Numbered from the stretch's first letter, positions 29,427-47,203 are shown. The stretch is DNA of 58,995 nucleotides from Gemmatimonadota bacterium (GCA_019347645.1 JAHWKZ010000001.1:1-58995); one strand, 5' to 3'. A program made the numbers and translations. The notes: generated by a model not told the origin, from the letters alone.

Positions 29427-29474
29427 AGGGATCGAGACGGCTCGGGATCGGGGAAACGCGACACCATGGCGAAA

Positions 29475-29570
29475 GCCCCAGGCGAGCCGCAGCGACCCGA
29501 CTCTCCACGTACCGCTGCTACCTTCCGGTCCTGACGGGGTTGATGGCGTCGAGCCCTGGGGGCCTGGGGC
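29475..29570 (-). ncRNA. ffs: signal recognition particle RNA (4.5S type)
   Basis: The minus strand contains GUCAGGACCGGAAGGUAGCAGC (E. coli 4.5S: GUCAGGUCCGGAAGGAAGCAGC), closed by GCCCCAGG...CCUGGGGC. It sits in the classic position upstream of dnaX. Confidence 0.85.
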
Positions 29571-29643
29571 ATGCAAGAAACTACCCCCGGGCCGGGGGGC
29601 ACGTCAACGGGCCGCTCGGCCGGCGGCCGCCCGGCGGGTCCGC

Positions 29644-29814
29644 TCAGCCCCGCCGGGAGTCCCCCTCCGCCCGCGGCGCCGGAAGCCGATCGAAGAACAG
29701 CTCCGGCTCGTCCGGCTCTTCCGGATCCTCGGCCGCGACGGGCGACGCCGGGCCGCAAGAGGTGCAGAGCGCCGCGACGACGAGGAAGCCGACCGCGAAT
29801 CGTCCGAGCCTCAT
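29644..29814 (-). CDS. small lipoprotein (56 aa)
   Basis: MRLGRFAVGFLVVAALCTSCGP signal plus lipobox. ATGA overlap with the upstream stop. Confidence 0.5.
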   Translation of the reverse strand: MRLGRFAVGFLVVAALCTSCGPASPVAAEDPEEPDEPELFFDRLPAPRAEGDSRRG

Positions 29815-30089
29815 CGGTCCCCCGCGTCCGGCGACGATCGGCTCCCGTCTCCGCGGGAAGTCGCGGGAGGAGCCCCCTCCGACTCGTCGAACCGGAGCCA
29901 GAGGCGCAGGCCCACCAGTCCCACCGCCATGAGCATCAACCGGGTGCCCTCCTGGTGGAAGAGCTCGGCCGTTCCGTGGACGATGACCACCATGCCGTAG
30001 GCGGCCAGCGCGCCGTTCACCACCCACCACAGGACCCTCTTCGCCTTGCGGGTCTCGTCCTCCAGGGTCGTATCCAACAGATCGGTCAC
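29811..30089 (-). CDS. small two-helix membrane protein (92 aa)
   Basis: GTG at 30089 preceded by GAGGAGGG and overlapping the receiver-gene stop (GTGA). VLWWVVNGALAAYGMVVIV and LMLMAVGLVGLRLWL hydrophobic helices. Confidence 0.55.
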   Translation of the reverse strand: MTDLLDTTLEDETRKAKRVLWWVVNGALAAYGMVVIVHGTAELFHQEGTRLMLMAVGLVGLRLWLRFDESEGAPPATSRGDGSRSSPDAGDR

Positions 30090-30604
30090 CGTCCCTCCTC
30101 TTCGATTCGACCGGCTCGCACCGCATCGCCCCCGCACGCTGGTCTCTTCCCCGTCCTCGATGGAGCTCCGCGTGGTCTTCGTGCCGATCGGCGACCCTCT
30201 CGCCGGGTCAGCCGCCGCCGGATCCCCGTCAGGGTCTCTTCCAGGCGGAGACGCGACACCGGCTTCTGCAGAAGGTCGTAGACGCCCGCCCGCGTGGCCG
30301 CGGCCTGGACCTCGCGCGACCTCCAGGAGGTCGCGAGCACGGAACCGGGCGAAGCCGACTCCACGATCCGTGTCGCCAATCGGCATCCGGCCGCGGAATC
30401 CTCGTCGAAGTCGATCACCACCAGGTCGGGGCGGAACCGCCGGATGCCGTCCAGATGCCGCTCGGTCGCCGTCCCCGGACGGATGCTCATTTCGTACTGG
30501 ATGTTGAACCCCTGGCGCGACGCCACCTCGTTCACGATCGCTTGCAGCTCCCCGTCCGCGGAGAGGATCATCGCCGTCCACGATTCCGCTTCGGCCTCGG
30601 CCAT
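30086..30604 (-). CDS. single-domain response regulator (CheY-like receiver with Arg-rich tail)
   Basis: AMILSADGE..., PDLVVIDFDED (acceptor Asp), VLATSW, LLQKP are receiver landmarks. Confidence 0.7.
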   Translation of the reverse strand: MAEAEAESWTAMILSADGELQAIVNEVASRQGFNIQYEMSIRPGTATERHLDGIRRFRPDLVVIDFDEDSAAGCRLATRIVESASPGSVLATSWRSREVQAAATRAGVYDLLQKPVSRLRLEETLTGIRRRLTRREGRRSARRPRGAPSRTGKRPACGGDAVRAGRIEEEGR

Positions 30605-30629
30605 CTCTATTCTCGCGACCTCACCCTCG

Positions 30630-31050
30630 ACTCAATAAGGTCATCCACCCTAGCGGAAGACCGGATCTCCTGTCAAGGCGTCGCCTTCCACAGATGCGGA
30701 ATCGGAATTCCACGAACGTGGAGACCCGGATCCGAATAGGAGAGTCGTTTTCATGATATTCAAGCTACATAACCTATTGCGAAATGGTAACCTGCGGGCT
30801 CTTAACTAGATTCTGGGTACGTGGTCTGGAGCTAGGTCATGCCTATAACGAAAGATTACAAGCTAGTGATCCAAAAAAATATCAAATTATCCGGTGGACG
30901 CCTCCCGTCATCGCGGCTCTAATCCGGCCTTTCTGTAAGTCCTCTGCCCGATCTACTGCGAATCGTGAATCCATGTTCGGGGGGAGATCGAGATTGTACT
31001 ATTTCGTTATGCTTTACAGAGGGGACATTTCTTTTGGAATGACGAGGGAA
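30630..31050. other. anomalously AT-rich non-coding spacer between the histidine kinase and the receiver gene
   Basis: My hand count over 30741-30900 gives 66 G+C of 160 (about 41%), against roughly 70% in the flanks. No convincing ORF on either strand. Contains a cluster of palindromes at 30704-30734. Confidence 0.7.
30647..30676 (-). promoter_or_regulatory. candidate sigma70-type promoter of the receiver operon
   Basis: Minus strand TTGACA (30676-30671), 18-nt spacer, TAGGGT (30652-30647), about 45 nt upstream of ATG 30604. The -10 is weak. Confidence 0.2.
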
Positions 31051-31109
31051 CCGCACGCGTGTGCCGAAGGAACGCGGGGGCGGGGCCATCACGCCTGACG
31101 ATCCCCGGC

Positions 31110-34100
31110 TCACCCGCCGTTCGTTCGCAGCCTCAAATGGATGGCGGTCCCCGCTGGACGGCGACGCTCCCACTCCACCGATCCGCCCCAGGTCTCGACG
31201 GTCCGCTTCACGATGGCGAGGCCCAGCCCCGTCCCCCGCGTCTTGGTCGAGAAGGACGGCTCGAACAGCCGATCGGTGGCGTCCGCCGACAGACCGGTTC
31301 CGTCGTCGACCACGGAGACACGCGCCTCCTCGGCGTCCCCGGCGAAGTCGATCTCGACCGCCACGCGACCCTTTCGGGCGGCGGTTCCGAGCACCGCCTC
31401 GCGGGCGTTCTGCAGCAGGTTCACCAGCACCCGCCGGAAGCCCTCGGCCTCCCCCAGGACCGGTCGGGCCTCGCCGGTGACCTCGAGCGCGTAGTCGATC
31501 TTCTCGTCGCCCGGCCGGAACAGCTCGATGGCGTCCCGGGCCACCGCCACGGCGTCGAACGGCTCGACCACGGTCGGCTGGGGAACGCCGAACCGGGCGA
31601 AGGAGCCGGCGATCCGCTCCAGGCGGTCGATCTCGGAGAGCACGAGATCGAGGTTGCGATGGAAGAGCCGCTCGAAGTCGGGTGCGCGGTCCTCGACGGT
31701 CTTCTCGAGGTGCTGCAGCGAGAGCTTCATCGGCGTGAGCGGGTTCTTGATCTCGTGGGCGACCTGACGCGCCATCTCCCCCCAAGCGAGCACCCGCTGC
31801 GACTGTACGTTCGCGGTGATGTCCTCGAAGGCGACGACCAGCCCGCGCTCCTCGCCGGCGCCGTCGACGAGGCCGGTGCAGACGACGTGGTAGTGGCGCT
31901 CCGCCCCCTCCCTGCGTAGGACCAGGTCGCGATCGGCGCGCGCTCCACGGACCGACGCCTCGGCGACGGCGCGCCAGAAGGGGGCGGCGGGGCGCTCCCT
32001 GCGGGCGAGCTCCTCCACCGATCGGCCGAGCACGTCCTCGGCCTCTTCGTCGAGCAGGTCGGCCGCTCGGTCGTTGAGCAGGCGCACCCCTCCGCGGGCG
32101 TCGAGAGCGACGACACCGGCCCCCACCGATGCGAGGATCGCCTGGACCCGCGACTTCTCCCGCTCGAGCGCCCGCTGGCTGGCGTCGAGGCGCCCGGCCA
32201 TGGCGTTGAACGCCCGCTGGACGCGGCCGAACTCGTCCCGCCGGGCGGGCGTCGACAACCGATAGGAGAGCCGGCCGGCGGCGATATGCCGGGTGCCCTC
32301 CTCGAGCGCCGACAGCGGCCGGGACATGAATCGGGCCAGCCCCCATCCCACGACGAGCAGGAATCCGATGGAGAACGCCGACAGCAGGAAGACTCCCTCG
32401 CCGAGGCGCTGGAGGTCGACCCGGACCCGATCCTCGCGGATCAGCAGCGGCGTCGCCAGGGCGTAGCCGGGCGGCACGTCGGGCTCGGAGAGCGCCCGGT
32501 AGGCGACCAGGAACGAGCGCTCGCCGAGCGTCGTCTCGTCGAAGGCGATCGGCCTTCGCTCGGCGAAGAGTGTCGCGTACACCGACCCGTCGATCCGGTC
32601 CGCGAAGACCCGGGAGGCGAAGATCTCCGGGCGGCTGGAGGCTCTCGTGTGGCCGCGCCAGTAGAGGACGAGGTCCTGCTGGAGGACGTCTCCGATCTCG
32701 CGAAGGCGCGCCGAGAGCTCACGGTCGGAGGCGATCGCGAGCGCCCGGTCGCGGGCCAGCAGCCGACTGGCTGCGTTCAACGCCTCGCTGGCCGCCGATC
32801 GTGTAGCCTCCTCGAGCTCGAGACGCGTGGTCCGGTACCCCAGGACGGCGTAGAGGGTGAGCGGGAGCGCCGCCACGGCGAGGAAGGCGAGGACGAGCTG
32901 GGCACGGAAGGAGCGGAGCGGGTTCTCCGCCGCGATCCGCGCGCGCCACGCGGTCCTGGCCCGCGGATCCCCCGCCCGCTCGAGCAAGCCCAGCGCCAGC
33001 GCCAGCGCGGAGGCGGCCAGGACGAACACCGCCGTTCCACGGGGCCCGGGGAGAAGGGGATCGAGCGGCATGGCGAGCTGGAGGGTGCCGACCTCGCCCT
33101 CCGCGTCGAAGGCCCGGACGCGAGTCAGCAAGGTTCGCGGCGGCGGCTCCTCTTCGGGGCCCAGTGTGGTGTACCCCGGTACGTCCGGCTCGATGCCGCC
33201 GCCGGCCAGGAGGTCGGTCAGCACGAAACCGGTCCCCTGCTCGCGCAGCTCCACGGAGCCCGTCGTCATCGCCACCGCCGTTCCGTTCCGCCGGCCCGCG
33301 GCGTCGAGGACGGGGACGACCGCCCACCGGACGGCGCCGGTGCCCTGCGATCCTCGGACGGGGATCTGGGCCGGCTCGAGTGCGGCCACGTAGCGCCGAG
33401 CGCGGTCGGTCAGGTCCTCGGGGGCGAGGGAGAACTGGCTCACGACCCGCCCCTCGGCGTCGAACAGAAACAGCCCGGTGGCGAAGTCGAGCTCGCGCAG
33501 CGGACTGCGGCTCCACAGGGCGAGCGCCGCGTCGCGGTTCTCCTCGGCGATCGCCTCGCTCACCGCCGGCTCGTTCGCGAGGAACTCCACGGTCCGGGTC
33601 ATCGTGTAGTCGAGCCACTGGCTGGACGCCTCGCCGATCCGCTGCGCCCGCTCGACGAGGAGCTCGTGCGCCGCCTGGACGCGCGCGAAGGCCGCCAGGG
33701 GAAGCGTGGCCAGGGCCCCCACGGCCGTCGCCACGATCGCGAGACGCACCAGCCGCACCCGCCGCGCCCCGCGCGGCCGGCCGACGGCGAGGGTGGCCCA
33801 GGCGCCGGCCACGATCGCGATCGCCGACGGCGCGACCACCTCGACCGGATGTCCCGCCATCGATGCTTCGGGGAGACGCCAAGCGGCGATGCCCACCGCC
33901 GCCCCCACCACCAGGGCGGCACCCCCTCCCCACGCGGGCCCGTCCGGCGTCCCCGCCCACCGCAGCACCCCCGCGAGGGCCACCACGACGGCCGCGCCGA
34001 ACAGGGCGAAGCCCAGCAGGACCAGGAGAAGCGGGGGAGCGAACAGGAGCGTGGGACTGAAGAACGCCGCGGGGCTCATGCCCTCGAGGGCCCCTTCGAG

Positions 34101-35405
34101 CGACGGGACCGCCAGTCGCCCGAGGCCCCACGTCACCGCGAGCGCCACGACGACCGTCAGGGTCGCCACCACCGGGCGGCGCCGACCCTCCCGCCGCGTG
34201 ACGAGGAGCGACCAGGCGGTCCAGGCCATGATCGCCGTCGCCGCCGCCGTCACCAGGAGGTGCCCCGCCGATCGGCCGGCCGGTCCGAAGGCCGGGGCCG
34301 CGAAACCCAGCGGGCTGAACCACTCTTCCGGCAGGAGACGAGCCGGGAGCCGGCTCTCGACCAAGAGGGCCCAGACGAGAGCGACGAGACCCAGCCGGAC
34401 GAGGAGGGCGGCGATCGCCTCGCCCCTTCCGCCGGCCCCGATCCGAGGTACGACCCGCGCCGTCCGTCGCGACGCTTCCCAGCCGACACCCACCGCCCAG
34501 GCCAGCGGCCACAGCAACAGCAGCGCCATCGCCCGCTCGCCCTGCCGCCGGCGCTCGGCCACGTACCGCTGGAGGAGGAAGCCTTCGCTGGCCACGCCCG
34601 CCACCACCTCCCGCGAACCCCCGACCACCGACGATCGCTCGGACGGGGCGAGGGTGTCTCCGCCGGGGAGGAGCCGGAACGCCAGATGCCGCTCCCGGGA
34701 GAGTCGGGCCAGGATCAGGTCCGGCTCGAGCGCCTCCCGGCGAAGCGGGGACTCGACCGCCCAGAGGTCCTTGACGACGACACGGAAGGTGTCGCGGCCG
34801 ATGGTCTGTGGCTTCCCCACGTATGCGATCACCCATCCGGTGGGGTTGCGCACCACCCCGCCGGCGAGCGCCGCCGCGATCGAGTCCGGCGGCAATCGCT
34901 CTCCGCGAGGATCGCCCCACCAGGCCCGCAGCGCGCCCTCAGAGTCGTAGAGCTCCAGGCCGATCCCCTCGGACAACCGTTCGGGCGTGGCTCGCCCCAG
35001 GGACACGAACCATTCGCTCTCCTCGTCCGGGAGCGGGAGCGAGCCTCCCGATGCCAGCCGCCGGGCCGTGGTCTCGGCCAGCTCCCGATCCTCGGCGAGT
35101 CGCGCGCTCAGCGCGCGTGCCACCCCGGCTCGCGCCTCGGATTCCAACCGGGCCGCCGCCCCTGGCCCCGCCATCGTCACCCGCCACGTGTCGAACGCCG
35201 TCCACGCCCAGATCCCGAGGTAGGCGATCAGGAGCCCGTAGGCGATCCTCGCGCCCCACCGCTCGGGGCGCCCCGCCACGGCGCCCCAGACCACAAGCCC
35301 GATGGCCGCCGCCACGGCCGCGACGGGCGCCGGGGCGGGGACGGCGCCGAATGACACCGCGGCGAGGCCGGTGGCGAGGAAGAGCGCGGCCGCGGCCCGT
35401 TTCAC
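31110..35405 (-). CDS. giant multi-pass sensor histidine kinase (NtrY-like HAMP-PAS-HisKA-HATPase C-terminus)
   Basis: 1431 aa; GTG start at 35405 (GTGA overlap with the exbD stop). Many hydrophobic helices in the first ~950 aa, then a HAMP-like region, AHEIKNPLTPM H-box, NLLQNAREA, DDGTGL and GTGLGLAIV. Confidence 0.85.
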   Translation of the reverse strand: MKRAAAALFLATGLAAVSFGAVPAPAPVAAVAAAIGLVVWGAVAGRPERWGARIAYGLLIAYLGIWAWTAFDTWRVTMAGPGAAARLESEARAGVARALSARLAEDRELAETTARRLASGGSLPLPDEESEWFVSLGRATPERLSEGIGLELYDSEGALRAWWGDPRGERLPPDSIAAALAGGVVRNPTGWVIAYVGKPQTIGRDTFRVVVKDLWAVESPLRREALEPDLILARLSRERHLAFRLLPGGDTLAPSERSSVVGGSREVVAGVASEGFLLQRYVAERRRQGERAMALLLLWPLAWAVGVGWEASRRTARVVPRIGAGGRGEAIAALLVRLGLVALVWALLVESRLPARLLPEEWFSPLGFAAPAFGPAGRSAGHLLVTAAATAIMAWTAWSLLVTRREGRRRPVVATLTVVVALAVTWGLGRLAVPSLEGALEGMSPAAFFSPTLLFAPPLLLVLLGFALFGAAVVVALAGVLRWAGTPDGPAWGGGAALVVGAAVGIAAWRLPEASMAGHPVEVVAPSAIAIVAGAWATLAVGRPRGARRVRLVRLAIVATAVGALATLPLAAFARVQAAHELLVERAQRIGEASSQWLDYTMTRTVEFLANEPAVSEAIAEENRDAALALWSRSPLRELDFATGLFLFDAEGRVVSQFSLAPEDLTDRARRYVAALEPAQIPVRGSQGTGAVRWAVVPVLDAAGRRNGTAVAMTTGSVELREQGTGFVLTDLLAGGGIEPDVPGYTTLGPEEEPPPRTLLTRVRAFDAEGEVGTLQLAMPLDPLLPGPRGTAVFVLAASALALALGLLERAGDPRARTAWRARIAAENPLRSFRAQLVLAFLAVAALPLTLYAVLGYRTTRLELEEATRSAASEALNAASRLLARDRALAIASDRELSARLREIGDVLQQDLVLYWRGHTRASSRPEIFASRVFADRIDGSVYATLFAERRPIAFDETTLGERSFLVAYRALSEPDVPPGYALATPLLIREDRVRVDLQRLGEGVFLLSAFSIGFLLVVGWGLARFMSRPLSALEEGTRHIAAGRLSYRLSTPARRDEFGRVQRAFNAMAGRLDASQRALEREKSRVQAILASVGAGVVALDARGGVRLLNDRAADLLDEEAEDVLGRSVEELARRERPAAPFWRAVAEASVRGARADRDLVLRREGAERHYHVVCTGLVDGAGEERGLVVAFEDITANVQSQRVLAWGEMARQVAHEIKNPLTPMKLSLQHLEKTVEDRAPDFERLFHRNLDLVLSEIDRLERIAGSFARFGVPQPTVVEPFDAVAVARDAIELFRPGDEKIDYALEVTGEARPVLGEAEGFRRVLVNLLQNAREAVLGTAARKGRVAVEIDFAGDAEEARVSVVDDGTGLSADATDRLFEPSFSTKTRGTGLGLAIVKRTVETWGGSVEWERRRPAGTAIHLRLRTNGG

Positions 35406-35818
35406 CGCGGCCGGTCCGGCTCCTCCGGCCGGGTCGCCACGACGAGCGCCTCCGCCCCGGCCCGTCGCGCGGCGTCCATCGCCTGGACCACCCGCCCGTG
35501 GGGCACGCGCTCGTCGGCTTCCAGGACGACCCGGTCGAGCCCCTCCCGCTCCATACGCGCGGAGAGCGTGTCGGCGAGGGCCTCCTGCCCCACGCGGTCC
35601 TCGCCCACCCAGGTCCCGCCGTCGGCGGCGAGACGCACGGTGAGCTCCTCCCGCGAGGCGACCGGCGCGGATCCCGCTTCGGGCAGCGTCAGGTCGATGC
35701 CCGGCCGCTCGAGGAACGTGGAGGTCACGACGAAGAAGATCAGCAGCAGGAAGACGACGTCGATCAGCGAGGTGACGTCGATCGCCGTCCTCCGGCGATG
35801 CGGCCTATCGAGGCGCAT
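35402..35818 (-). CDS. exbD: ExbD/TolR biopolymer transport protein
   Basis: AIDVTSLIDVVFLLLIFFVVTS single TM followed by a periplasmic domain; 138 aa. Confidence 0.88.
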   Translation of the reverse strand: MRLDRPHRRRTAIDVTSLIDVVFLLLIFFVVTSTFLERPGIDLTLPEAGSAPVASREELTVRLAADGGTWVGEDRVGQEALADTLSARMEREGLDRVVLEADERVPHGRVVQAMDAARRAGAEALVVATRPEEPDRPR

Positions 35819-36427
35819 CGGTCGTCGAGAAGCCGAGGATCTTCTTCATCAGTCGGTTGGTGTGCGCCTCGATGTCGAGGACGAGACGCTCCGCCCGGCC
35901 CACGAGCCAGTTGTACGCCACCAGCGACGGGATCCCGATCGACAATCCGGTGGCGGTCGTGATGAGGGCCTCCGAGATCCCTCCCGAGAGCCCCTGGCCC
36001 CTCCCGCTCCCTCCCGCGCCACCACCTCGAAGACGTCGATCATCCCGAGCACGGTGCCCAGCAACCCCAGCAGCGGCGCGATGGCCGCGATCGTCCCGAG
36101 GACGCCGAGTCCCCGCTCCAGCCGCGCCACCTCCTGCCGCCCCTGGTCCTCCACCGCTTCCCGCATCTCCTCCCGGGACCGACCGCGGAACTCGAGGGCG
36201 GTCAGGACGAGAGACGAGAACGGCCCCGGGTTCCGCCCGCAGATCGAGCGCGCCAGCGGCACGTCGCCGGGGCCCTGCAGGGTTTCGATGAGATCCACGA
36301 TCTCCGACTTGACGACCCGGTCGCGGCGCAGGTGCCAGGCCCGGTCGAAGACGATCCACAGCGCGAGGACCGAGCATGCCGCGAGCGGGACCATCAGCAC
36401 GCCGCCCTGGAGGAGCGTCTCCCACAT
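35805..36427 (-). pseudogene. exbB: MotA/TolQ/ExbB proton channel, reading frame broken by a 1-nt indel
   Basis: The N-terminal 2/3 (MWETLLQGGVLMVPL...LGLLGTVLGMIDVFEVVA) is in the frame of ORF 35849..36427. The C-terminal third (GLSGGISEALITTATGLSIGIPSLVAYNWL) is in the frame of ORF 35805..36425. The switch lies in the G/C run near 35991-36001. Confidence 0.75.
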
Positions 36428-36430
36428 CGG

Positions 36431-37345
36431 CTATCGCTCCGGGACCACATTGAAGTAGAAGTGGGCGGTGACCTCGAGGTACGGCTCCGGGAAGTCCGGC
36501 GGGAGAGGCTCGTAGTCGGCCGCGCCCTCGAGGGCGTCGGTGGCCACGTACTGGAGGCCGTCCACCCCCCGATGGTCGAGGAGCTGGAGGGACGTCAACC
36601 GGCCGTCGGGGGCGATCCGGAATCGGACCCGGGTGACCCAGGCGGCCGTGCCGTAGTAGAAGGCCGCGGGCGGGGAGATGTGCTCCTCGACCCTCCGCTT
36701 GAGGCGCTCCATGTACGGGCCCCAGCGCCAGGCGGTCGTGTTGAGGCTGAATTCTTTGTCGTACGCCGCCTGGGTCAGCCGCTGGTCGACCTCCGGCACC
36801 GGAAGCGCCCCGTCGCCCGGCGGCTCGCGCAAGCGCGGGGTGGCCATCGGCAGCGCGAGTCGGGGGTCCACCGCCGGGGAGGCGTTCGATGGCGGCCCGT
36901 CGTCGTCCTCGGCCTCCCGGACGGGCTCGGGGAGGGGCTCCGCCTCGGAGGCGCCCCGGGCGCCGGACGCCGGAGCGCCGCTCGAGCGTGGGGTGGTGGG
37001 CGCCGGCGCCGGGCCAGCCGAGAATGCCGCCCCCTCGGGCCGCTCCGGCGGGGCGTTCGGTTGCGCCGCCCTGGCATCCGTCGACGACAGATCGCTCGGC
37101 TCCTCCGGCGGCTCCGCCTCTACGGGCTGGGGATCCACGAACCGGAAGACCATCGGCTCGTCCGCCTCGGAGAAGGCTTCCTGGTTCCCGACCCCGACGA
37201 AGTCGCGGACGGGTGCCACCAGAGCCGCATGGAGGAGCAACGACGCCGCGAGGGCGATTCGGGAGGATCGATCGTCCAGCATCTTCTGCCTGAGACGATC
37301 AATATACCCCGCGGGTTCCCTGGACCGTACCCGAAGGGAGTCCAC
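36431..37345 (-). CDS. TonB-like energy transducer
   Basis: N-terminal anchor IALAASLLLHAALVAPV, a Pro/Glu/Ala-rich linker, and a C-terminal VTRVRFRIAPDGRLTSLQLLDHRGVDGLQYVATDAL TonB_C-like domain. The start is either GTG 37345 or ATG 37282. Confidence 0.65.
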   Translation of the reverse strand: MDSLRVRSREPAGYIDRLRQKMLDDRSSRIALAASLLLHAALVAPVRDFVGVGNQEAFSEADEPMVFRFVDPQPVEAEPPEEPSDLSSTDARAAQPNAPPERPEGAAFSAGPAPAPTTPRSSGAPASGARGASEAEPLPEPVREAEDDDGPPSNASPAVDPRLALPMATPRLREPPGDGALPVPEVDQRLTQAAYDKEFSLNTTAWRWGPYMERLKRRVEEHISPPAAFYYGTAAWVTRVRFRIAPDGRLTSLQLLDHRGVDGLQYVATDALEGAADYEPLPPDFPEPYLEVTAHFYFNVVPER

Positions 37346-37373
37346 CTCCCGTCGGCGCGCCCCGGGGCCCCGC

Positions 37374-38066
37374 TCAGCCGGAGGTCACGGGGGCCTCGGC
37401 GAGCGACCGCGCGCGCGCGACGGGGCGATGCCGGCGGAGCTCGTTGGCGTCGCCGGTCAGCAGCGTTGCGATGTCGGCCGACGCCATCACCAGGGCCGAG
37501 AGGCCGGCCCAGGCGCGCAGGATGTCGGGACCGGGAGCGATGAAGAGCACCAGGACGGCGGTGTGGGGAGCGACCCCCAGCCAGATCCTCCAGGCCGCGA
37601 CTCCGAGGCGCCCGAGCCGCGCCCTCCACGCCCGTCGCCGCCGGGATCCGACGATCGCCGCCGCGGCGATGAGGGGCGCCGCGACCGCCACGGTCGCGAC
37701 GGCGTAGACGATCGTGACCGGAAGCAGCGCCCACTCGGCCCACCCCCGCCCCACCGGGGCGCGTCCGCCGCCCCGTCCGTTCGCCCGATAGCGGGCCTTC
37801 TGCATCAGCTCGAAGCCGCGGAAGTGACGGACGAGGTAGTCCCGCGCGGCGTTGATCTCCTGGATCTTCCGCGTCGCCCGAGCGCGTTCCTCCACCGTCT
37901 CGAACCGGTCGGGATGGATGCGCCTGGCGCGCGCCCTGTGCGCCCGGTGGACGTCCTCGATCTCGATCGGCGGGAAGAGCCCGAGCGCGCGCAGCGAGTC
38001 GCGATAGCGGACCTCGTCGTACCGGCCGCGCCCGCCCGGCGGGAGCGGTCGGTCGAGCTGCTTCAT
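37374..38066 (-). CDS. membrane-anchored J-domain protein
   Basis: Inner ATG at 38066 (ATGA overlap with the AAA+ stop). J domain with HPD (ARRIHPDRFETVEERARATRKIQEINAARDYL), followed by 3-4 hydrophobic helices. Confidence 0.7.
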   Translation of the reverse strand: MKQLDRPLPPGGRGRYDEVRYRDSLRALGLFPPIEIEDVHRAHRARARRIHPDRFETVEERARATRKIQEINAARDYLVRHFRGFELMQKARYRANGRGGGRAPVGRGWAEWALLPVTIVYAVATVAVAAPLIAAAAIVGSRRRRAWRARLGRLGVAAWRIWLGVAPHTAVLVLFIAPGPDILRAWAGLSALVMASADIATLLTGDANELRRHRPVARARSLAEAPVTSG

Positions 38067-39532
38067 GGCTCGGCGGTCCCGGGGACGGCCGCCCCGGTCG
38101 GCGGAGCCGACGCGGGCGATGCCGACGCGGGCGGAGCCGACGCGGGCGGAGCCCCGCTCTCCGCGTCCCCGACCCCCTCCCCCGGCATGTCCAGGAAATA
38201 GGAGCGGCAGGCGCGGTCCAGCAGGCGGGTCGAGAGGATCGGCTCGACGTCGAGGTACCGGGCCTCGTCGCAGAGGTGGTCGAGCAGGTCGCGCGGGTGG
38301 CACGAACGGGCCGGGATGGACCGCCTCTCGTAGTATTCGCGCCAGATCCAGCGGACGGCGTCCGGCTCGAAGGCGATCTGCCGGGCGATGCATCCCCTGC
38401 GAAAGATCTGCAGGTACTGCTCGAACGTCGGGTCCGGGACGAGGATCTTGTAGTGGATCCGCCGCAGGAAGGCCTCGTCCACGAGCTCGAGCGGATCGAG
38501 GTTCGTGGCGAAGACGAGCAGACAATCGAAAGGCACCGGGAACTTGTGGCCGGTGTGCAACGTCAGGAAGTCGAGGCGCTTCTCGAGCGGCACGATCCAG
38601 CGGTTCAGCAGGTCCCGCGGTCGCACGATCTGCCGCCCGAAATCGTCGATGATCAGGACCCCGCCGTTGGCCTTCACCTGGAAGGGGGCCTGATAGATCT
38701 TCGTGTGCGGATCGTACTGGAGGTCGAGCTGATCGAGCGTCAGCTCTCCGCCGGTGAACACGACCGGCCGGCCGACGCGCGCGAAGCGCCGGTCGTAGGG
38801 AGTGGGCTTCGCGAGCCATTCGGGCTCCTCGTCCGCCGCGGCGGCCGGACCCACCTTGCGGTCCGGCAGCGAAGAGTGGTGGACCGGGTCGTGGACGACC
38901 ATCACGTGGCCGCCGATCTCGACCGCGTAGGGCACGTACAGCTCGCCGCCCATCATCCGCGCGATCGCCTCCGCCAGCGTGGTCTTCCCGTTCCCGCTGT
39001 CGCCGTAGAGGAACATCGACTTGGCCGAGTTCACCGCCGGCCCGATCTGCTCCAGGAAATCGGGATCGAGAACAAGGTGGCTGAAACCGGACTCGATCGC
39101 TTCCCGGTCGAGTCGGGCGTTGCGGATCGAGCCGGCGGCCACCCAGGCGCGGTACTTCTCGAGCGGGACCGGGGCCGGTCCCACGTACTGGCCCGCGGCC
39201 ATCGATTCGCGCGCCCGCTCGCGTCCCTTGGAGGTGAGGTCGAAGGTATAGCCGCCGCGGCCGTGACCCTTGGCGCCGCGGACCTCGAGCAGCATCCGCT
39301 GCTGGAGGTCCTGGAGCCGGTCGTCGAGGATCGAGAACGGGAGCCGGACGTCCTCGACGAGACGTTGCCCCGTCCGCGCGCCCCGGACGTAGAGGGTCTT
39401 GAGCACGAGCTCGGCGACCGTCTCGGCGGAGAGACCGCTCTCCGCCAGCGTCCCCGGCACCTTCGGCGCCTTCTCGGCCGCGAACTGCGGCCGCTGGTTC
39501 AGGCTGGAGCGGGGGCGCGCGTCCAGGGTCAC
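38063..39532 (-). CDS. AAA+ ATPase of unassigned family
   Basis: GTG at 39532 (GTGA overlap with the DUF192 stop). Walker A FLYGDSGNGKTT, Walker B GVLIIDDFGRQ, sensor-like LVFATNL, FLRRIHYKI. C-terminal PPASAPPASASPASAPP repeat tail. Confidence 0.75.
   Translation of the reverse strand: MTLDARPRSSLNQRPQFAAEKAPKVPGTLAESGLSAETVAELVLKTLYVRGARTGQRLVEDVRLPFSILDDRLQDLQQRMLLEVRGAKGHGRGGYTFDLTSKGRERARESMAAGQYVGPAPVPLEKYRAWVAAGSIRNARLDREAIESGFSHLVLDPDFLEQIGPAVNSAKSMFLYGDSGNGKTTLAEAIARMMGGELYVPYAVEIGGHVMVVHDPVHHSSLPDRKVGPAAAADEEPEWLAKPTPYDRRFARVGRPVVFTGGELTLDQLDLQYDPHTKIYQAPFQVKANGGVLIIDDFGRQIVRPRDLLNRWIVPLEKRLDFLTLHTGHKFPVPFDCLLVFATNLDPLELVDEAFLRRIHYKILVPDPTFEQYLQIFRRGCIARQIAFEPDAVRWIWREYYERRSIPARSCHPRDLLDHLCDEARYLDVEPILSTRLLDRACRSYFLDMPGEGVGDAESGAPPASAPPASASPASAPPTGAAVPGTAEP
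38091..38150 (-). repeat. in-frame 15-bp tandem repeat (about 4 units) in the AAA+ C-terminal tail
   Basis: gccgacgcgggcgat / gccgacgcgggcgga / gccgacgcgggcgga at 38106-38150, preceded by a diverged unit at 38091-38105. Encodes SAPPA-type pentapeptides. Confidence 0.7.
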
Positions 39533-39885
39533 GCCGCCTCCGACCACGACAGGTGGTCCCCGAGCAGCGTGCCCGTGGAACCGAGCGTGCCTTCGGGCAG
39601 CTCGAGCGCGAACCGGGCCTCCCCGTGCCACTTCGAACGCGCTCCGGGCGCCAGTCCGCGGTAGAGGGCCACGACCTCCCGCTCCTCGTCCATGAACGCG
39701 ACGTCGATCGGATACCGCATGCCGTACATGTGGACCCCCCGACAGGGGACCATCAACAGACCCTGCCCCTCCTCCAGTGGGCCGTGACCGATCAGTCCCC
39801 GGAGTCGCGGCCACCACCAGTCGGCCAGGTCCACCTGCTCCCCCAGGACCGACCCCCGGGTCTCGTTGACGACTTTCAAAGCCAT
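39529..39885 (-). CDS. DUF192 (COG1430) family protein
   Basis: Inner ATG at 39885: [33 protein letters not shown]...[25 protein letters not shown]. The ATG shares one base with the tadC TGA. Confidence 0.65.
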
Positions 39886-40814
39886 CACATCAGATCCTTC
39901 ATCTGGGCCAGGATGTGGAGGATCGCCGGCCCGAGGATGACCACGAACATGGCCGGGAAGATGAACAGGACCAGCGGGAAAACCAGCTTGATGGTCGTCT
40001 TCGCCGCCGCCTCCTCGGCCCGCTGGCGGCGCTTCGTCCGCAGCGTGTCGGAGTGGACGCGCAGCGCGGTGGCGACCGAGGTCCCGAACCGGTCGGTCTG
40101 GATCAGCATCGCGGTCAGCGCCTTCAGATCTCCGACCCCGGTCCTCTCGCCGAGGTTGCGGAGCGCCTCGTCCCGGGGCGTACCGTGGCGGATCTCGAAG
40201 TTGGTGAGCATCAGCTCCTCGGCCATCGTCCGGCTCACGTGCTCGATCTCCTCGGAGACCCGCACCAGCGCCTGGTTGAGTCCGAGCCCGGCCTCGACGC
40301 AGACGACCAGCAGGTCGAGCGAGTCGGCCAGCGCCTTCTGGAGCTCGCCCTGGCGCTTGCGGGTGCGGCGCTTGATCGCGTAACGGGGCAGGATCCACCC
40401 GCCGAGCGCCGCGACGCCGGTCACGAGCAGGATCACCCCCGGCCTGGCGCCGAGGATCGTGGCGCCGAAGAAGCCGGCTGCGGCCAGGATCGCGACGGCC
40501 GTAAAGCGGAGCGCCACGTACACGGGGACGGCGGACGGACGGCGATAGCCGGCCTGGACCAGCATTCGCTGGATCTCGCTCCAGTCGATCTTTTTGCTCG
40601 CGACCTTCTCCCCGAACGCCTCCAGCAGCGACTCAAGTCGTTCGCGCTTCTCCTGACGGCGGCGACGTTGCAGCGCGTAGTGCCGGCTCGCGCCCGACTC
40701 GAGTTCGGCGAGGCGCTTCCCGATCGCCCGCGAGCGCGCCGGGGCGAGCGTGGCGACGCTGTAGACGAGCGTCACCACGGACATCATGACCAGAGCGACG
40801 ATGAGATAGACCAT
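39885..40814 (-). CDS. tadC: Flp pilus assembly platform protein TadC (T2SS F family)
   Basis: 309 aa; [22 protein letters not shown] and [19 protein letters not shown]; AGGAG RBS. Confidence 0.88.
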
Positions 40815-40826
40815 GGCCCGCGACTC

Positions 40827-41816
40827 CTAGATCTCGATGTCGATGATCCGTCGGATCGCGAAGAATCCGACCACCTGCAGGAGCAGCGCGACCGAGATCA
40901 TCATCCGCCCCGTAGGCTCGGTGAAGAGGATCGACATGTACTCGTGGTTCATGATCCCGATCAATGCGCCGACGCCGATCGGCAGCACGGCAAGCAGATA
41001 GCCGGTGAAACGGCCCTGGGCGGTGTAGACCCGGACCTGTCGCTGGATGGTGAACCGCTCCCGGATCGTATGGGCGATCTTGTCCAGGATCTCGGCGAGG
41101 TTCCCCCCGACCTCGCGCTGGATCAGCAGCGCGGTGACGAAGATCCGCATGTCGAGCAGGTCGATCCGGTCGGCGAGGGCCAGCATCGAGTCCTCGATGG
41201 AGAGGCCGAATCGCTGTTCCTCGAAGACCCGGCGGAACTCGGCGGAGACGGGCTCGGGGCTCTCCTCGGCGACCATCCCGAGCCCGGTCGAGAAGGCGTG
41301 CCCAGCCCGGATCGCCCGGCCCAGCAGGTCGATCGCCTCGGGGAAGTGCTCCTCGAAGCGCTCGATTCGCTTCGCCTTCTTGCGCTTCACGTACAGGTAG
41401 GGCAGAGTGGCGCCGAACGCGGCCGCGGCCAGGGCCACGATCGCGAGTTTCGTCATCACCCAGGCGGCCAGGCCGAAGCCGACGGCCCCTCCCACCGTGT
41501 ACAGGACGAAGGAGCCGACGCGCCAGTCGAGGTCGGCCTGATCGATCAGGTGCTGGAGGTCCCGGGCGTGGGGGAGCCGCGCCACGAGCGGCTTGAGCCA
41601 CCTCACGTCCGTCAGCTCCTCGTCGCGGAACAGGTCCCCGAAGGGATCCCCCTCCTTCCGGGGACCCTCTCCGGTCAGGCCGCCGAGCCGGTCGACGATC
41701 TCCTTGCGCCGCCTCCGGTCGACCCACCACTCCCACAGGAAGACCAGCGAGAGGACCCCCAGGGCCACCGCCGCGAAGACCAGGATCGCCGGAGCGAGGT
41801 TCGCCGGCGCGCTCAC
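40827..41816 (-). CDS. tadB: Flp pilus assembly platform protein TadB (T2SS F family)
   Basis: GTG at 41816 (GTGA overlap with the tadA stop). [34 protein letters not shown]. Confidence 0.88.
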
Positions 41817-43354
41817 CGCTCCGCCCCGGCGAAGAACTCGGCGTTGGAGAACAGCCCCGCCGGAAGGTCGATGCCGCTGGTGCGCAGCCGCTCGCCGAAC
41901 CGCGGACGGATCCCGGTTGCCTTGAACCGGCCCAGGACCCTTCCGTCCTCGTCGATCCCCTGCCGCTCGAAGGTGAAGATCTCCTGCATGGTGATGATGT
42001 CCCCCTCCATCCCGACGATCTCCGAGATCGACGACAGCTTCCGTCTCCCGTCGGAGAGACGCGAGACCTGGAGCACCACGTCGATCGCCGCGGCGATCTG
42101 CTGGCGCATCGCCTTCTCGGGGAGATTGAGGTTGGCCATCGAGATCATCGTCTCCAGACGGCTGAGCGCGTCCCGCGGGCTGTTGGCGTGGAGGGTCGTC
42201 AACGAGCCGTCGTGGCCGGTGTTCATCGCTTGCAGCATGTCGACCGCCTCCGACCCGCGAACCTCGCCCACGATGATCCGGTCCGGCCGCATCCGCAGCG
42301 CGTTGATCACCAGCTGACGGGCCGTGACCTGCCCCTGCCCCTCGACGTTCGGCGGGCGCGTCTCGCACCGGACCACGTGCGGCTGGCGGAGCTGGAGCTC
42401 GGCCGAGTCCTCGATGGTCACGATCCGCTCGTCGGGCGGGATCGACGACGACAGGACGTTGAGCAGCGTCGTCTTCCCGGCGCCGGTGCCGCCGGAGATC
42501 AGCACGTTCAGCCGGGCCTTCACGATCCCCTGCATGAGCTCCAGCATCGCCGCGGTCAACGTCTCGTAGCGGAGCAGGTCCTCGGCGGAGAGCGCGTCGG
42601 TCTTGAACTTCCGGATCGAGACGTGGGGCCCATCCACCGCCAGCGGCGGGATGATCGCGTTGACGCGCGAGCCGTCGGCCAGGCGGGCGTCGACCATCGG
42701 GCTCGAGTCGTCGATCCGCCGGCCCACCGCCGAGACGATCCGATCGATCACCTGAAGCAGGTGCTTGTTGTCCTTGAACCGGACGTCGGTCCGCTGGAGC
42801 CGGCCGTCCCGCTCGATGAAGACGCGGTCGTAGGTGTTCACCAGGATGTCGGAGACCGACGGGTCCTGCAGCAGCGGCTCGAGGGGCCCGAGGCCGAAGA
42901 TCTCGTTCAGGACCTGCTCGACGAGCGATTCGCGCTCCTCGAAGTTGAGCGGCGCCGATTCGCGGGCCAGGAGGTCCTGGACGACCTTGCGGATCTCGGA
43001 CACGACCATGTCCCGGTCGTGGGAGTCGAGGTTCGAGAGGTTCAGCCGGTCGACGAGCTGTTTGTGGATCCGGCCCTTGATGTCGTGGATGACGCTGCCG
43101 TCGTCGTCGGTTTCGTGCGAGGCGCGCCGGCGCTCCGAGAGTCTCGGTGGAGGCGGGTCCGCGGCGCCTGCGAGCGGTCCGTTCCCTTCCTCCCGGGTCC
43201 GCTCCTCGGCTTCCTCGGAGACGAAGGCCGGAACTCCCTCCTCCTCCTCGACGTCGTCGGGCGACTCGGGCGGCTCCCACGGGAGTCGGTCACGGTTGAC
43301 CTCCCCATCGTCACCGAACAGGGGCACCGAATACGGATCGTGATCGTTCGTCAC
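41813..43354 (-). CDS. tadA: Tad/Cpa secretion ATPase (CpaF/TadA)
   Basis: GTG at 43354 (GTGA overlap with the tadZ stop). [54 protein letters not shown]. Confidence 0.93.
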
Positions 43355-44634
43355 GATTCACCTCCGACCACAGCGGGTGGGGGAAGAAGGAACGCGTCCT
43401 CGATCTCCTGGTCCATCCCGAGCATCGTCTTCATCCGGTCCACCGAGCGGGCGAGCCAGCCCCGCTTCCTCGGGACGGCGCCGGGCACGCCGGCGATCTT
43501 CGCGCCCAGTGCCTGGAGCTCCTCGGAGTAGAGCGACTTGTCGTCGAGGAGCACGGGGCGGCCGGTGTTGATCGCGTAGATGACTGCCTCGTAGTCGTTG
43601 GGCAACGTCCAGTAGACGTCCATGTCCAGCGCCCGCTCGACGTCGTCGAGGGTGATGTCGTTGTCCGGCTGATAGCGGTTGACGATCAGACGGACCTCGT
43701 GGCCCTTCTCGCTCATCCGCTCGAGCAGATGCTGCGCGCGCTGGATGTTCCTGAGCGACGGCAGGTCGACGTTGGCGACGAGGTACACCTCGTCGGCCAG
43801 GTCGAACGTCGCCAGGGTGCGAGCCGTGAAGGAGTTCGAGGTGTCGACCACCACGTAGTCGTAGTGCTGGCGGAGGAAGTGGAGGATCTGGCGGATCTGA
43901 TCCGCCGTCACCGCCTCCGCCTTCTCGGGATGGTACGGCGCGGAGAGGACGTGGACGCCCGTATCGTGGCACTCGATGAACGAGGCCAGGAGTCCGGCGT
44001 CCATCCGATGGACGTTCTTGGCCAGGTCGACGAAGTTGAACCGCGGCTCGATTCCCAGGAACAGCGCGCTCTCGCCGAGCTCGAGGTCGAGGTCGACGAC
44101 CACGGTCTTCTTGCCGGTCAGGCGTTGCATCTGGATGGCCAGGTTTGTGGCCACCGTGGTCGAGCCGGCGCCCCCCTTGGCCGCGAAGAACGCCAGCAGC
44201 TTGCCGGGCTGGCGCGGACCGCTGCCGTTCGCCCCTCCGACCATCTTCTTCCGCGCGCGGGTCACCGCCGCGGCCAGCGACTCCACGGTGACGGGCTTCG
44301 GCAGATAATCGCCGATCCCCGCCTGCATCGCCTGCATCAGGAACTCGGGCGACCCCTCGCCCCCGGCGGCGATCATGCGTCTCTTGGGGTTCGTCTCGGC
44401 GAGGAACTGGGCCAGCTTCACGCCCAGGACCGGGTCTTCCTCGAGGTCGAGGAAGATCAGCTCGGGATCGACGTACCGGAGCTCCTCGAGATGGCCGTGG
44501 CTGATCTTCTTGAACGGCACCACGATCTCGAACTCGATGTCGATCGGGTGGTCGGCGTCGATCCCCTCCCGGACCGCGGTCCGGAAGTCCCCGTCCGTCG
44601 ACACGATCGCGGCGCGTATGGCCTGGCTTTCCAT
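43351..44634 (-). CDS. tadZ: TadZ/CpaE: atypical receiver domain fused to a ParA/MinD-like ATPase
   Basis: Inner ATG at 44634 with GAGGAG RBS. Receiver-like N-terminus, then [18 protein letters not shown] deviant Walker A. Confidence 0.88.
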
Positions 44635-44648
44635 GTTTGCTCCTCTGC

Positions 44649-45797
44649 TTACTCGACGAGGCGGACGAACTTCACCTCGGGGCCCTCGGTGGCGCCGCCG
44701 AGGCCGTCGGAACCCACGCCGACTCCCGTGGCGAACAGAAAGCGTCCCACCACGTCCTTCCCCTTCATCTCCTCGACCCAGAACGCCGTGATGTTGTTGA
44801 AGACGATCGGCTTCTTGCCGGGGTCCACGGGTTGGGTCGGGTCGAACAGCGGAATGTTGGCGACCCGGGGGCTCGCCTTCCACGGCACATATCGGCTGTT
44901 CACCACGCTGTCGGCGGCGAGATCCCAGCTGGCGTCCGGATCCTGGTCGATGAGGTCCTCGACTCCCTGACGCGTGGGTCCGGTCATGTTGCCGTTCTCG
45001 ACCATGTACGCCTCTCCCAACCGGATCACCGAGGTGTTGCAGTTGGCGATGTTCCAGCGGTACCGAGACGCCCCGGTCGCGGGCGACCCGGACACCTGGG
45101 GGACGTCCCACGGGAAGTACCAGGAGGGGACGATCGCTTCCTGCGGCGTCCCCTCCTTGAGGACGATCGGACGACCGAAGTCGTCCTCGTACGTCGTCCC
45201 GTCGGGATCCACCCCGTTCTGCGAGGGCTGGCCGTTTCGGAAGTCGGACCCGTAGCCGGTGTCGGTCGGGTGGTAGTACTCGCCCGAGTCGTACCGATCG
45301 TCGAGGTCGACGTCGTCCCAGGCGTCGGGAACCGCGAAGGGCTTCAGGCACGTGGCGGCCCCGGCCGGCGACGCCTCGGCGGTGGCGCGCGCCGCGACGT
45401 CGACTTCGTCCACGCCGAAGACTCGCGCGAACCAGGTCGCTACGGCGAGCCCGCGATCGGCCGTGCGACGGACCGTCACGGTGACCCGCATGCGAGGCAC
45501 GTCGACCTCCACGTCCTCGGGGACGAGCGCCACCGCGTCCTTCCGGACCGAGTTCGCCGCCGCGTACTGGACCGCGATGTCGCGGGCTCGCTGTTCGTTG
45601 TCCGGCGCTTCGATGAACGAGGCCGCTCCGGCGAGGGCGGCCGAGTCCGCCGCCCGCTGGGCCTCGCCGCGGGCGGTGAACAGCATGCCGAGGTCGATCG
45701 CGAGGGCGAGGATGGACAGCAGCGCCGTCATCGCCACCGCCGCGAGGACGATCGTCGAACCCCGCTCGTCGCGCAGGAGGGACGTCGGCCGCTTCAC
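44649..45797 (-). CDS. tadG: TadG-like pilus assembly protein
   Basis: GTG at 45797 (GTGA overlap with the cpaC stop). ERGSTIVLAAVAMTALLSILALAIDLGMLFTARGEAQRAADSAALAGA is a Tad_N-type N-terminus. Confidence 0.75.
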   Translation of the reverse strand: MKRPTSLLRDERGSTIVLAAVAMTALLSILALAIDLGMLFTARGEAQRAADSAALAGAASFIEAPDNEQRARDIAVQYAAANSVRKDAVALVPEDVEVDVPRMRVTVTVRRTADRGLAVATWFARVFGVDEVDVAARATAEASPAGAATCLKPFAVPDAWDDVDLDDRYDSGEYYHPTDTGYGSDFRNGQPSQNGVDPDGTTYEDDFGRPIVLKEGTPQEAIVPSWYFPWDVPQVSGSPATGASRYRWNIANCNTSVIRLGEAYMVENGNMTGPTRQGVEDLIDQDPDASWDLAADSVVNSRYVPWKASPRVANIPLFDPTQPVDPGKKPIVFNNITAFWVEEMKGKDVVGRFLFATGVGVGSDGLGGATEGPEVKFVRLVE

Positions 45798-47191
45798 TCG
45801 TCCCCCGTCGGTCCCACCGGAGCGGGCGCGATCGGCTCCTTCAGCGCGTCGTCCCAGTCCCACGTCTCCGGCTCGCCGGTCGGGACCGGGGGCGGGGCCT
45901 CCGATGGCTGCACGATCCGCGGCGTCACGAGCACGAGCAGCTCGGTCCGATTCTCGCGGATCCCCTTGCTGCTGAAGAGCCTACCCAGGATCGGGATGTC
46001 TCCCAGGATCGGGAACTTGTCGACGTTCTCGGTGATCGAGTTGTCGAGGAGTCCTCCGATCGCGAACGTCTGGCCGTCCCGAAGCTCGACCTCGGTGGAG
46101 GCCCTCCGGCTCAGCAGGGTGGGGATCTGGAAGCCCGACAGCTGGAGACCGTTCGCGAAATCGAGGCTCGACACCTCCGGGGCGACGGTCAGCCGGATGT
46201 TCCCCGCGTTGGTGATGTGGGGCGTGAAGTTGAGCCGGACCCCGAACTCCTTGAACAGGATGGTGATGTTCGTGCCGCCCGCGGTCGCCTGCGGGACGGG
46301 ATAGGGGAACTCCCCGCCCGCCAGGAACGACGCCTCCTGCCCGTCCATGGCCAGGAGGTTGGGCTCGGCCAGGCTTCGGAACATCCCCTTCGCGGAGAGG
46401 GCCCGGATGAACGCCCCGACGCTCTCGCCCTCGTGGAACAGATAGAGGTTCACGACGTCGCTGAAGGTCTGCTCCGGCCCGACCGGGTCGTTGGCGAAGT
46501 TGCCCGCCGGCGGGGTGTGCTGGCCCGTGGAGAGGGCCCCCTCGTCGTCGCCCCGCGGGTTCAGCGGATCGAACCGGAGGATGTTGATCCCGTACTCCTT
46601 GATGGCGGTGCGGTTGACCTCCGCGAAGCGGACCTGGAGGAGGATCTGGTCGGGGGCCGGGACCTGCAGGTTGTCGATGACCGTCGCGCCGGTCGCCGCG
46701 GCGATCTCCAGCGCCCGTCGCGCCACCGAAGCCTCCTTCAGCGTACCCGACAGGATGTAGGTGTCGCCGCTGGCGGTGACGTCGATCCGCTCGTCGGGGA
46801 ACAGCGCCAGGAAGTGGCGCTCGAGGGCCTCGGCGTCGACGGTGACCTCCACCTCGTGGAGCCGCCGTGCCCCCACCTGATCCCACAGGACCAGGGTGGT
46901 GGTGCCGGTCTGCTTCCCATGGATCATCACCTCGGTCGGCGAGACGACGACCGCCTCGGCGACGTCGGCGTCGGCCACCGAGACCCGGCGCAGCGTGGTG
47001 CCGTTGGAGACCAGGGCGGCCTTGCCCACCGCGACGGTGACGGATCGATAGTCGGAGCCGGCGTCCTGACCGGCCACCGCCGGCGGCCGCGCCAGGCCAA
47101 ACGCGACGACGCCCAGGGCGAGCGCGACCAGGCGCGCCGGCCTCCGATGCCGATGGAGGCGGCCGCGAGTCCTACTCTCGTTGGTTTTCAT
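45794..47191 (-). CDS. cpaC: Flp pilus secretin CpaC/RcpA
   Basis: Signal peptide, BON-like region, and a secretin C-domain (EPNLLAMDGQEASFLAGGEFPYP, DKFPILGDIPILGRLFSS). GGGAGG RBS. Confidence 0.92.
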   Translation of the reverse strand: MKTNESRTRGRLHRHRRPARLVALALGVVAFGLARPPAVAGQDAGSDYRSVTVAVGKAALVSNGTTLRRVSVADADVAEAVVVSPTEVMIHGKQTGTTTLVLWDQVGARRLHEVEVTVDAEALERHFLALFPDERIDVTASGDTYILSGTLKEASVARRALEIAAATGATVIDNLQVPAPDQILLQVRFAEVNRTAIKEYGINILRFDPLNPRGDDEGALSTGQHTPPAGNFANDPVGPEQTFSDVVNLYLFHEGESVGAFIRALSAKGMFRSLAEPNLLAMDGQEASFLAGGEFPYPVPQATAGGTNITILFKEFGVRLNFTPHITNAGNIRLTVAPEVSSLDFANGLQLSGFQIPTLLSRRASTEVELRDGQTFAIGGLLDNSITENVDKFPILGDIPILGRLFSSKGIRENRTELLVLVTPRIVQPSEAPPPVPTGEPETWDWDDALKEPIAPAPVGPTGDE

Positions 47192-47203
47192 GCGGTTGCC
47201 TCC

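Follow-up and report, generated by a model that had tools for sequence, protein, structure and literature searches.

A Ton-type motor gene trio conserved with a giant sensor kinase next to Tad pilus genes in Gemmatimonadota

Three motor genes and a giant kinase gene

A 58,995-bp contig from an uncultured Gemmatimonadota genome (GCA_019347645.1, JAHWKZ010000001.1; GC about 70%), analysed over its whole length and called the window below, carries three consecutive minus-strand genes that resemble tonB, exbB and exbD. Genes were called by third-position GC content (GC3) and named with Pfam and NCBIfam. The trio encodes a genuine motor of the Ton family, from a subfamily with poor annotation, and its operon with a giant sensor histidine kinase gene next to Tad pilus genes is a conserved and previously undescribed arrangement. 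The original prediction, made from the sequence of the window, had recognized the trio; domains, motifs and fold all bear it out, and a break in the exbB reading frame comes in addition. The genes and the element in front of them are as follows.

37301-37306, minus strand: putative -10 element TATATT, ending 18 nucleotides before the tonB ATG
36431-37282, minus strand: tonB-like gene, 283 amino acids (aa), with anchor, spacer and TonB/TolA-type C-terminal domain
35805-36427, minus strand: exbB, 207 aa once the missing C near 35997 is restored (Pfam MotA_ExbB)
35402-35818, minus strand: exbD, 138 aa (Pfam ExbD)
31110-35405, minus strand: sensor histidine kinase, 1431 aa, HAMP-PAS-HisKA-HATPase

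The tonB stop codon TAG (36431-36433) is followed, after 3 nucleotides, by the exbB ATG at 36427; the exbD ATG at 35818 overlaps the exbB end at 35805 by 14 nucleotides, and the exbD stop and the kinase GTG start (35405) share the tetranucleotide GTGA. The junctions first described, a 3-nucleotide gap and an exbD overlapping both exbB and the kinase start, are thus present in the sequence. An RTGA overlap between the exbD stop and the kinase start recurs in at least 19 of the 22 related Gemmatimonadota loci described below. The kept position and this conserved overlap lend good support to a motor-kinase link through predicted co-transcription and translational coupling.

The TonB-like protein

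The tonB-like product is listed at NCBI as "hypothetical protein KY397_00215". Its start had been placed at a GTG at 37345, which is not conserved; the ATG at 37282 (MLDDR...) is common to all homologues and is the one used by NCBI, and the conserved TATATT falls within the N-terminal extension that the 37345 start would imply. The protein had been described as an N-terminal anchor, a Pro/Glu-rich spacer and a TonB_C-like end. Anchor and spacer were confirmed, whereas the TonB_C score stayed below its cutoff and the TonB/TolA fold was recovered by a family profile and a structure model instead.

An S-x3-H motif (SLLLH) lies in the sole predicted membrane helix, at the N terminus. Its His is invariant among 31 homologues, those from other phyla included, and the Ser position is mostly Ser, with Thr or Ala in a few. 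Residues 29 to 175 form the spacer, with 19% Pro, 17% Ala and 11% Glu; disorder is predicted for it, and the AlphaFold2 model contains no regular structure in this part.

For the C-terminal domain, the single sequence scored 20.6 bits with TonB_C (PF03544; cutoff 24.6), 16.8 bits with TonB_2 (cutoff 22) and 16.4 bits with tonB_Cterm (cutoff 27.1), all below threshold, and a precomputed PF03544 match is present in some close homologues. A family profile was needed to reach solved TonB C-domains, and it matched that of Helicobacter pylori (5lw8, 6sly) with an E value of about 3e-5. The AlphaFold2 model of this domain has a predicted local distance difference test score mostly above 90 (means of ten-residue blocks 81 to 97), and Foldseek placed 6sly and 5lw8 first (target-normalised TM 0.70 to 0.75), followed by TolA and other TonB C-domains. 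The family also has conserved motifs of its own: NTTAW..PY, FPEPxLEIT and, within the spacer, S..D.RAAQP.

At spacer residues of about 60 to 100 (window positions about 36980-37100), the motif S..D.RA.QP...P.G.A(F/Y)..G..P.P..PR is largely conserved in the Gemmatimonadota homologues. In other phyla invariance is limited to the S, the A of "RA" and the second G, and the most distant sequences lack the P.G.A(F/Y) stretch. For a TonB linker to be conserved in this way is unusual.

ExbB, ExbD and the frame break in exbB

ExbB matches Pfam MotA_ExbB (PF01618) with 112 bits (cutoff 22.9), and ExbD matches Pfam ExbD (PF02472) with 105 bits (cutoff 25.4), so that neither assignment is in doubt. After a one-base correction, the channel Thr and Glu are present in ExbB, as GTVLGM and GISEALITTATG align with the TolQ/ExbB channel helices. 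The transmembrane Asp of ExbD lies in LIDVVFLLLIFF, with the Asp of LIDVVF aligned to the Asp of FIDVM in Escherichia coli ExbD. The best Protein Data Bank (PDB) sequence matches of ExbB are TolQ structures, and the closest solved relative of ExbD is E. coli ExbD (E value 2e-8, with TolR at 1e-4).

The correction concerns a break in the window, where exbB is split over two frames with a switch near 35997-36000. A Logan contig from run SRR15827330 (SRR15827330_146645, locus L087) equals the window over 2193 nucleotides except for one extra C. The difference falls at about 35997 in a run of C, which reads CC in the window and CCC in the Logan contig (GGGGCCCAGGGG versus GGGGCCAGGGG), and the latter encodes an intact 207-aa ExbB. 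With an otherwise identical independent assembly carrying exbB intact, the frameshift of the window most likely stems from misassembly or represents a minor variant. Both halves of the gene retain a high GC3, and exbB is intact (204 to 221 aa) in all other relatives that carry it. A programmed frameshift or a pseudogene was considered and rejected in view of the intact assembly differing in one C together with the uninterrupted orthologues. The intact ExbB sequence was not found in NCBI sources, where the best 120 matches listed were all orthologues, and the deposited record probably treats exbB as a pseudogene.

Promoter-like element and operon boundaries

The genes on either side of the trio and kinase are listed here, with the few other features to which the text refers.

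49931-50929, minus strand: sigma-54-activator-like gene without a receiver domain (Pfam/NCBIfam)
39885-49676, minus strand: Tad pilus genes from Flp to TadC, whole span
49308-49676, minus strand: open reading frame (ORF) whose last 45 codons are Flp (Pfam), the real gene thus being shorter
48491-49000, minus strand: CpaA
48054-48503, minus strand: TadE
47204-48031, minus strand: CpaB
45794-47191, minus strand: CpaC secretin
44649-45797, minus strand: TadG
43351-44634, minus strand: TadZ
41813-43327, minus strand: CpaF
40827-41816, minus strand: TadB
39885-40814, minus strand: TadC
39529-39888, minus strand: DUF192
38063-39547, minus strand: P-loop/AAA-like protein, 494 aa
37374-38066, minus strand: DnaJ-domain membrane protein
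30086-30604, minus strand: stand-alone receiver-domain ORF (Pfam Response_reg)
29473-29569, minus strand: signal recognition particle RNA, followed by dnaX

In the window, a gap of 91 nucleotides separates the gene for the DnaJ-domain membrane protein from the tonB-like ATG. The hexamer TATATT at 37301-37306 occurs nowhere else in the 59-kb window, both strands considered (0.2 expected by chance), and it stands immediately upstream of the tonB-like start in 20 of 20 aligned orthologous loci. The rest of this spacer varies in length (about 100 to about 740 nucleotides across loci) and in sequence; in L004/L005 it has received an inserted CHRD gene, and in the subclade of L008 it contains an intrinsic terminator of canonical form (ACCCGACCGCGAGTCGGGT, then T7), located after the DnaJ-domain gene and before TATATT. 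In the window itself we found neither a terminator nor a significant hairpin ahead of tonB, and read-through from the Tad operon is possible there. The fold of the 103-nucleotide region upstream of tonB did not differ from that of shuffled sequence (z = -0.15), and a sigma-70 consensus scan of 29500-39000 returned no sites.

We regard TATATT as a putative -10 promoter element. The conserved hexamer, the terminator of the L008 subclade and the inserted CHRD gene together suggest that tonB-exbB-exbD-kinase is probably an operon of its own, apart from the one that encodes the secretin. It had been proposed that the transcription unit of the trio holds no outer-membrane component other than the CpaC secretin; with a conserved promoter-like element directly in front of tonB, this is doubtful.

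The giant sensor kinase and nearby receiver domains

About 12 membrane helices are predicted for the kinase, along with two or three alpha/beta domains outside the cytoplasm and, after these, HAMP-PAS-HisKA-HATPase. The structure model of its N terminus is of moderate confidence and gave weak PDC/Cache-type matches (E values 0.016 to 0.1; KinD, LuxQ, CitA, CpxA), in which the outer domains show a weak resemblance to ordinary ligand-binding PDC/Cache folds. Nothing suggestive of a TonB box or plug was seen in the modelled N terminus, and a search for distant relatives with the N-terminal 1010 residues returned orthologues alone (10).

No DNA-binding response regulator adjoins the kinase. About 500 nucleotides downstream of it, the stand-alone receiver ORF at 30086-30604 scores 31.0 bits with Response_reg (cutoff 30.2) and is closest to TadZ receiver domains among the loci; it lies in a lower-GC stretch, and its GC3 of 0.80 is below that of the neighbouring genes. 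This ORF could be left over from the second Tad cluster seen after the kinase in many relatives, or it could be a partner of the kinase. The N-terminal receiver domain of TadZ keeps a phospho-acceptor-like Asp (FLDLEED) and a Lys (LPKP), suggesting that it might be phosphorylated, with the adjacent orphan kinase as a candidate donor.

At the tad locus of Pseudomonas, the PprA kinase regulates the Tad genes, and by analogy the present kinase most likely regulates the Tad genes that flank it. The likeness to PprA-PprB of P. aeruginosa lies in a sensor kinase encoded beside Tad/Flp genes; the present kinase differs in being far larger and polytopic, in sharing its predicted operon with a Ton-type motor and in having no DNA-binding response regulator next to it.

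Conservation across Gemmatimonadota and other phyla

A family-specific motif scan of GTDB species representatives gave 80 loci, to which the window proteins were mapped by tblastn. Homologues of the TonB-like protein come almost all from Gemmatimonadota metagenomes. In the 22 species-representative loci of this phylum it is 46 to 56% identical in full-length matches, and a metagenome contig (L003) reaches 63%. The block CpaC-TadG-TadZ-CpaF-TadB-TadC-DUF192-ATPase-DnaJ protein-tonB-exbB-exbD-kinase is kept in about 20 species wherever the contig reaches, and the order of DUF192, ATPase and DnaJ-domain membrane protein is conserved in all related loci. On the 3' side of the kinase follows either dnaX, as in the window, or a second set of Tad genes. 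The collinearity of the clade extends to unrelated genes after the kinase (ffs-dnaX-ybaB-recR-pgsA-cinA), and adjacency alone is therefore weak evidence of shared function.

The second Tad set (CpaA-TadE-CpaB-TadG-TadZ and so on) lies right after the kinase in L004/L021, L008, L013, L018, L019, L020 and L028, so that in these loci two Tad systems flank the tonB-exbBD-kinase operon.

Outside this phylum, about 58 loci (Latescibacterota, Krumholzibacteriia, KSB1, Calditrichota, Aminicenantes and Cloacimonadota) have the trio but neither Tad genes nor the kinase; their ExbB is 45 to 54% identical in most, and the neighbours are of housekeeping type (methyltransferase, MBL hydrolase, CutA1, MnmA, TPR). 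The Tad link of the trio is conserved within one clade and absent elsewhere. In a neighbour-joining tree of ExbB and ExbD, the Gemmatimonadota loci form one clade, Cloacimonadota form a cluster, Latescibacterota and Krumholzibacteriia form another, and the remaining phyla make up a mixed group. One Gemmatimonadota contig, L001, has the trio alone and is nested within the Tad-linked clade; a gene for a TonB-dependent transporter lies on the same contig, about 10 kb from the trio.

In genomes of the Latescibacterota type, the genes that often come after the trio encode an unknown lipoprotein (about 390 aa), an outer-membrane protein with weak likeness to FadL (about 400 aa) and a TPR protein (for example L061 11943-13103 and L042 12236-13444). 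These three proteins are possible partners of this TonB subfamily.

Function of the motor

Our preferred reading, to which we give a probability of roughly 0.55, is that the trio is a Ton-type energiser of general purpose and ancestral origin, which in one lineage came to be transcribed together with a kinase of the Tad island. As judged from sequence and fold, ExbB and ExbD would make up an inner-membrane proton channel, with the TonB-like protein anchored beside it through its S-x3-H helix; this protein would cross the periplasm on its Pro-rich spacer and dock its TonB/TolA-type end on an outer-membrane partner. The copy in this lineage would descend from an old module, apparently by vertical inheritance. 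With the module standing alone in several related phyla, its job would most likely be the energising of outer-membrane processes, chiefly of TonB-dependent transporters encoded elsewhere in the genome, and in the one Gemmatimonadota lineage it would have been fused into an operon with the kinase that lies in the Tad pilus island.

Canonical TonB-ExbB-ExbD systems (E. coli; the operons of Pseudomonas and Xanthomonas) are among the closest known systems. Shared features are the three-protein set with tonB first, the S-x3-H anchor, the Pro-rich spacer, the TonB-type fold of the C-domain, the transmembrane Asp of ExbD and the channel Thr and Glu of ExbB. On the other hand, the scores stay below the TonB_C, exbB and ExbD equivalog thresholds, the family has its own motifs, and in the present clade the trio is apparently co-transcribed with a 1431-aa kinase.

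Several observations weigh against the general energiser. The block is intact in every Tad-linked genome despite rearrangements at both of its borders. L007 and L009 have no exbB-exbD; in both, the tonB-like gene is intact and has the kinase gene as its immediate neighbour. The two loci are not each other's closest relatives and their deletion junctions differ, L007 (10960-11170) keeping the exbD 3' tail and L009 (5284-5430) having a new GTGA overlap between tonB and kinase, which suggests two independent losses of exbBD. The local ExbBD seems to be dispensable, presumably since further ExbBD or TolQR sets exist, and the pattern gives a hint of selection on tonB and kinase as a pair. Moreover, hidden Markov model scores do not decide between Ton and Tol for the trio, since all are far below the equivalog cutoffs.

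A second explanation is a motor dedicated to the Tad machinery, to the kinase or to both, for example by positioning or gating the secretin or by feeding a proton-motive-force or mechanical signal to the kinase. By analogy with known pilus systems such a role is conceivable, and we rate it as unlikely, yet as the strongest of the alternatives. It would fit the conservation of the block in about 20 species, many with Tad genes on both sides, the conserved translational coupling to the kinase, and a tonB-kinase pair that outlives the loss of exbBD; no cognate response regulator is encoded in the operon, and TadZ and the stand-alone receiver lie nearby. There is also a precedent. In P. aeruginosa, tonB3 adjoins the pilus-regulating Pil-Chp signalling genes, and the Poc genes are not known to share an operon with it. 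The PocAB-TonB3 system is needed for the placement of type IV pili and the flagellum, and contact of TonB3 with PilQ's N0 domain has been proposed (PMC5285504). The resemblance is that its ExbB/ExbD/TonB homologues are tied to a type IV-class pilus and not to nutrient uptake (PMC5285504), although Poc concerns type IVa pili and the flagellum instead of Tad pili, and the present system is known from its genes alone.

Against a dedicated motor, the promoter-like element, joined by a terminator in one subclade, parts tonB from the Tad operon, and orthologous trios occur without Tad genes or kinase in other phyla and in L001. CpaC has standard domains only (the pilus N-terminal domain, a sub-threshold BON match and the secretin), and no TonB-related N-terminal domain was found in it by the domain scan. 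The outer domains of the kinase look, weakly, like PDC/Cache folds, and exbBD is dispensable in two species. A literature search for Tad pili with TonB or ExbB gave no relevant link, and one for Gemmatimonadota with TonB and ExbD gave nothing specific. Of the two ties that had been suggested for the trio, to the pilus apparatus or to kinase signalling, a link to the kinase is supported by the kept position and the RTGA overlap, and the tie to the secretin comes down to an association of neighbours.

A more specific form of the same idea, which we hold to be doubtful, is that the motor was recruited to a signalling or pilus module. The target of the TonB-like protein would then be the Tad secretin or the periplasmic domains of the kinase, with the protein energised by the local or another ExbBD, so that proton-motive force or mechanical load would set a kinase output controlling two flanking Tad systems; by analogy, it would be the Tad counterpart of PocAB-TonB3 with a built-in kinase.

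What is at stake differs between these accounts. A general energiser would be one more Ton system, and the gain would be a corrected annotation (a TonB-like gene labelled "hypothetical" and an exbB broken by a probable one-base assembly error) and a distinct TonB subfamily common to Gemmatimonadota and several related candidate phyla. A dedicated motor would be the second genomically explicit Ton-like motor serving a type IV-class pilus and the first to be wired directly to a histidine kinase, and would bear on how systems of the PocAB-TonB3 type act on pili.

Ton or Tol

A third explanation, which we consider rather improbable, is a Tol-like envelope-maintenance system, that is, a TolA/TolQ/TolR analogue in a different gene order. 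Tol-Pal belongs to the same motor superfamily, and ExbB is slightly nearer to TolQ, scoring 88.8 bits with the NCBIfam tolQ equivalog (cutoff 221) versus 67.6 bits with exbB (cutoff 206), with TolQ structures as its top PDB sequence matches. ExbD likewise scores better with tolR (57.7 bits) than with ExbD_1 (54.6 bits), the N terminus of the TonB-like protein matches tolA_full, and TolA C-domains are among the leading fold matches, the C-domain also being like TolA domain III. In other phyla, moreover, the neighbours are of housekeeping type and there is apparently one copy per genome. However, every one of these NCBIfam scores is far under its equivalog cutoff, ExbD is nearer to solved ExbD than to TolR, and the best fold and profile matches of the C-domain are TonB. 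The Pro-rich spacer is predicted to be disordered, unlike the long helix of TolA, and the gene order is tonB first.

Nor are Tol partners found. The domain scan of the window proteins, which took in every ORF of at least 400 aa, returned no Plug/TonB_dep_Rec, TolB or Pal domain, so that the reported lack of a TonB-dependent transporter or Tol-Pal partner nearby is borne out for the scanned proteins; CpoB is likewise not adjacent to the trio. TolB and Pal were also not found beside the trio in other phyla, the conserved downstream genes being the lipoprotein, FadL-like and TPR genes. We favour Ton over Tol because tonB comes first, the spacer is rich in Pro, and TolB and Pal are lacking. The missing transporter had itself been used as an argument for a dedicated role; it carries no weight, as Ton operons are commonly unlinked to their TonB-dependent transporters.

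Finally, a decaying motor, with exbB a true pseudogene and the locus a relic, would agree with the frame break of the window, the lack of an intact ExbB in NCBI sources and the deletion of exbBD in L007 and L009, but is very improbable given an intact independent assembly that differs by a single C in a run of C, high GC3 in both gene halves and intact exbB genes in the other relatives.

Other features of the window

DUF192, the 494-aa P-loop/AAA-like protein, for which no family could be assigned, and the DnaJ protein, which has two membrane helices, make up the 3' end of the Tad operon (37374-39888). We know of no described role of any of the three in Tad systems.

Upstream of the Flp gene, the sigma-54-activator-like protein (49931-50929) comprises an AAA+ core, a lid and a Fis-type helix-turn-helix, without a receiver or other N-terminal sensor domain, and the match to the AAA+ core is merely partial. 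Matches to the sigma-54 promoter pattern in the window occurred at chance level, with none beyond it. Elsewhere in the window, a tRNA-Sec gene (13696-13794, minus strand) adjoins a lower-GC stretch (13810-14398) with overlapping ORFs on both strands.

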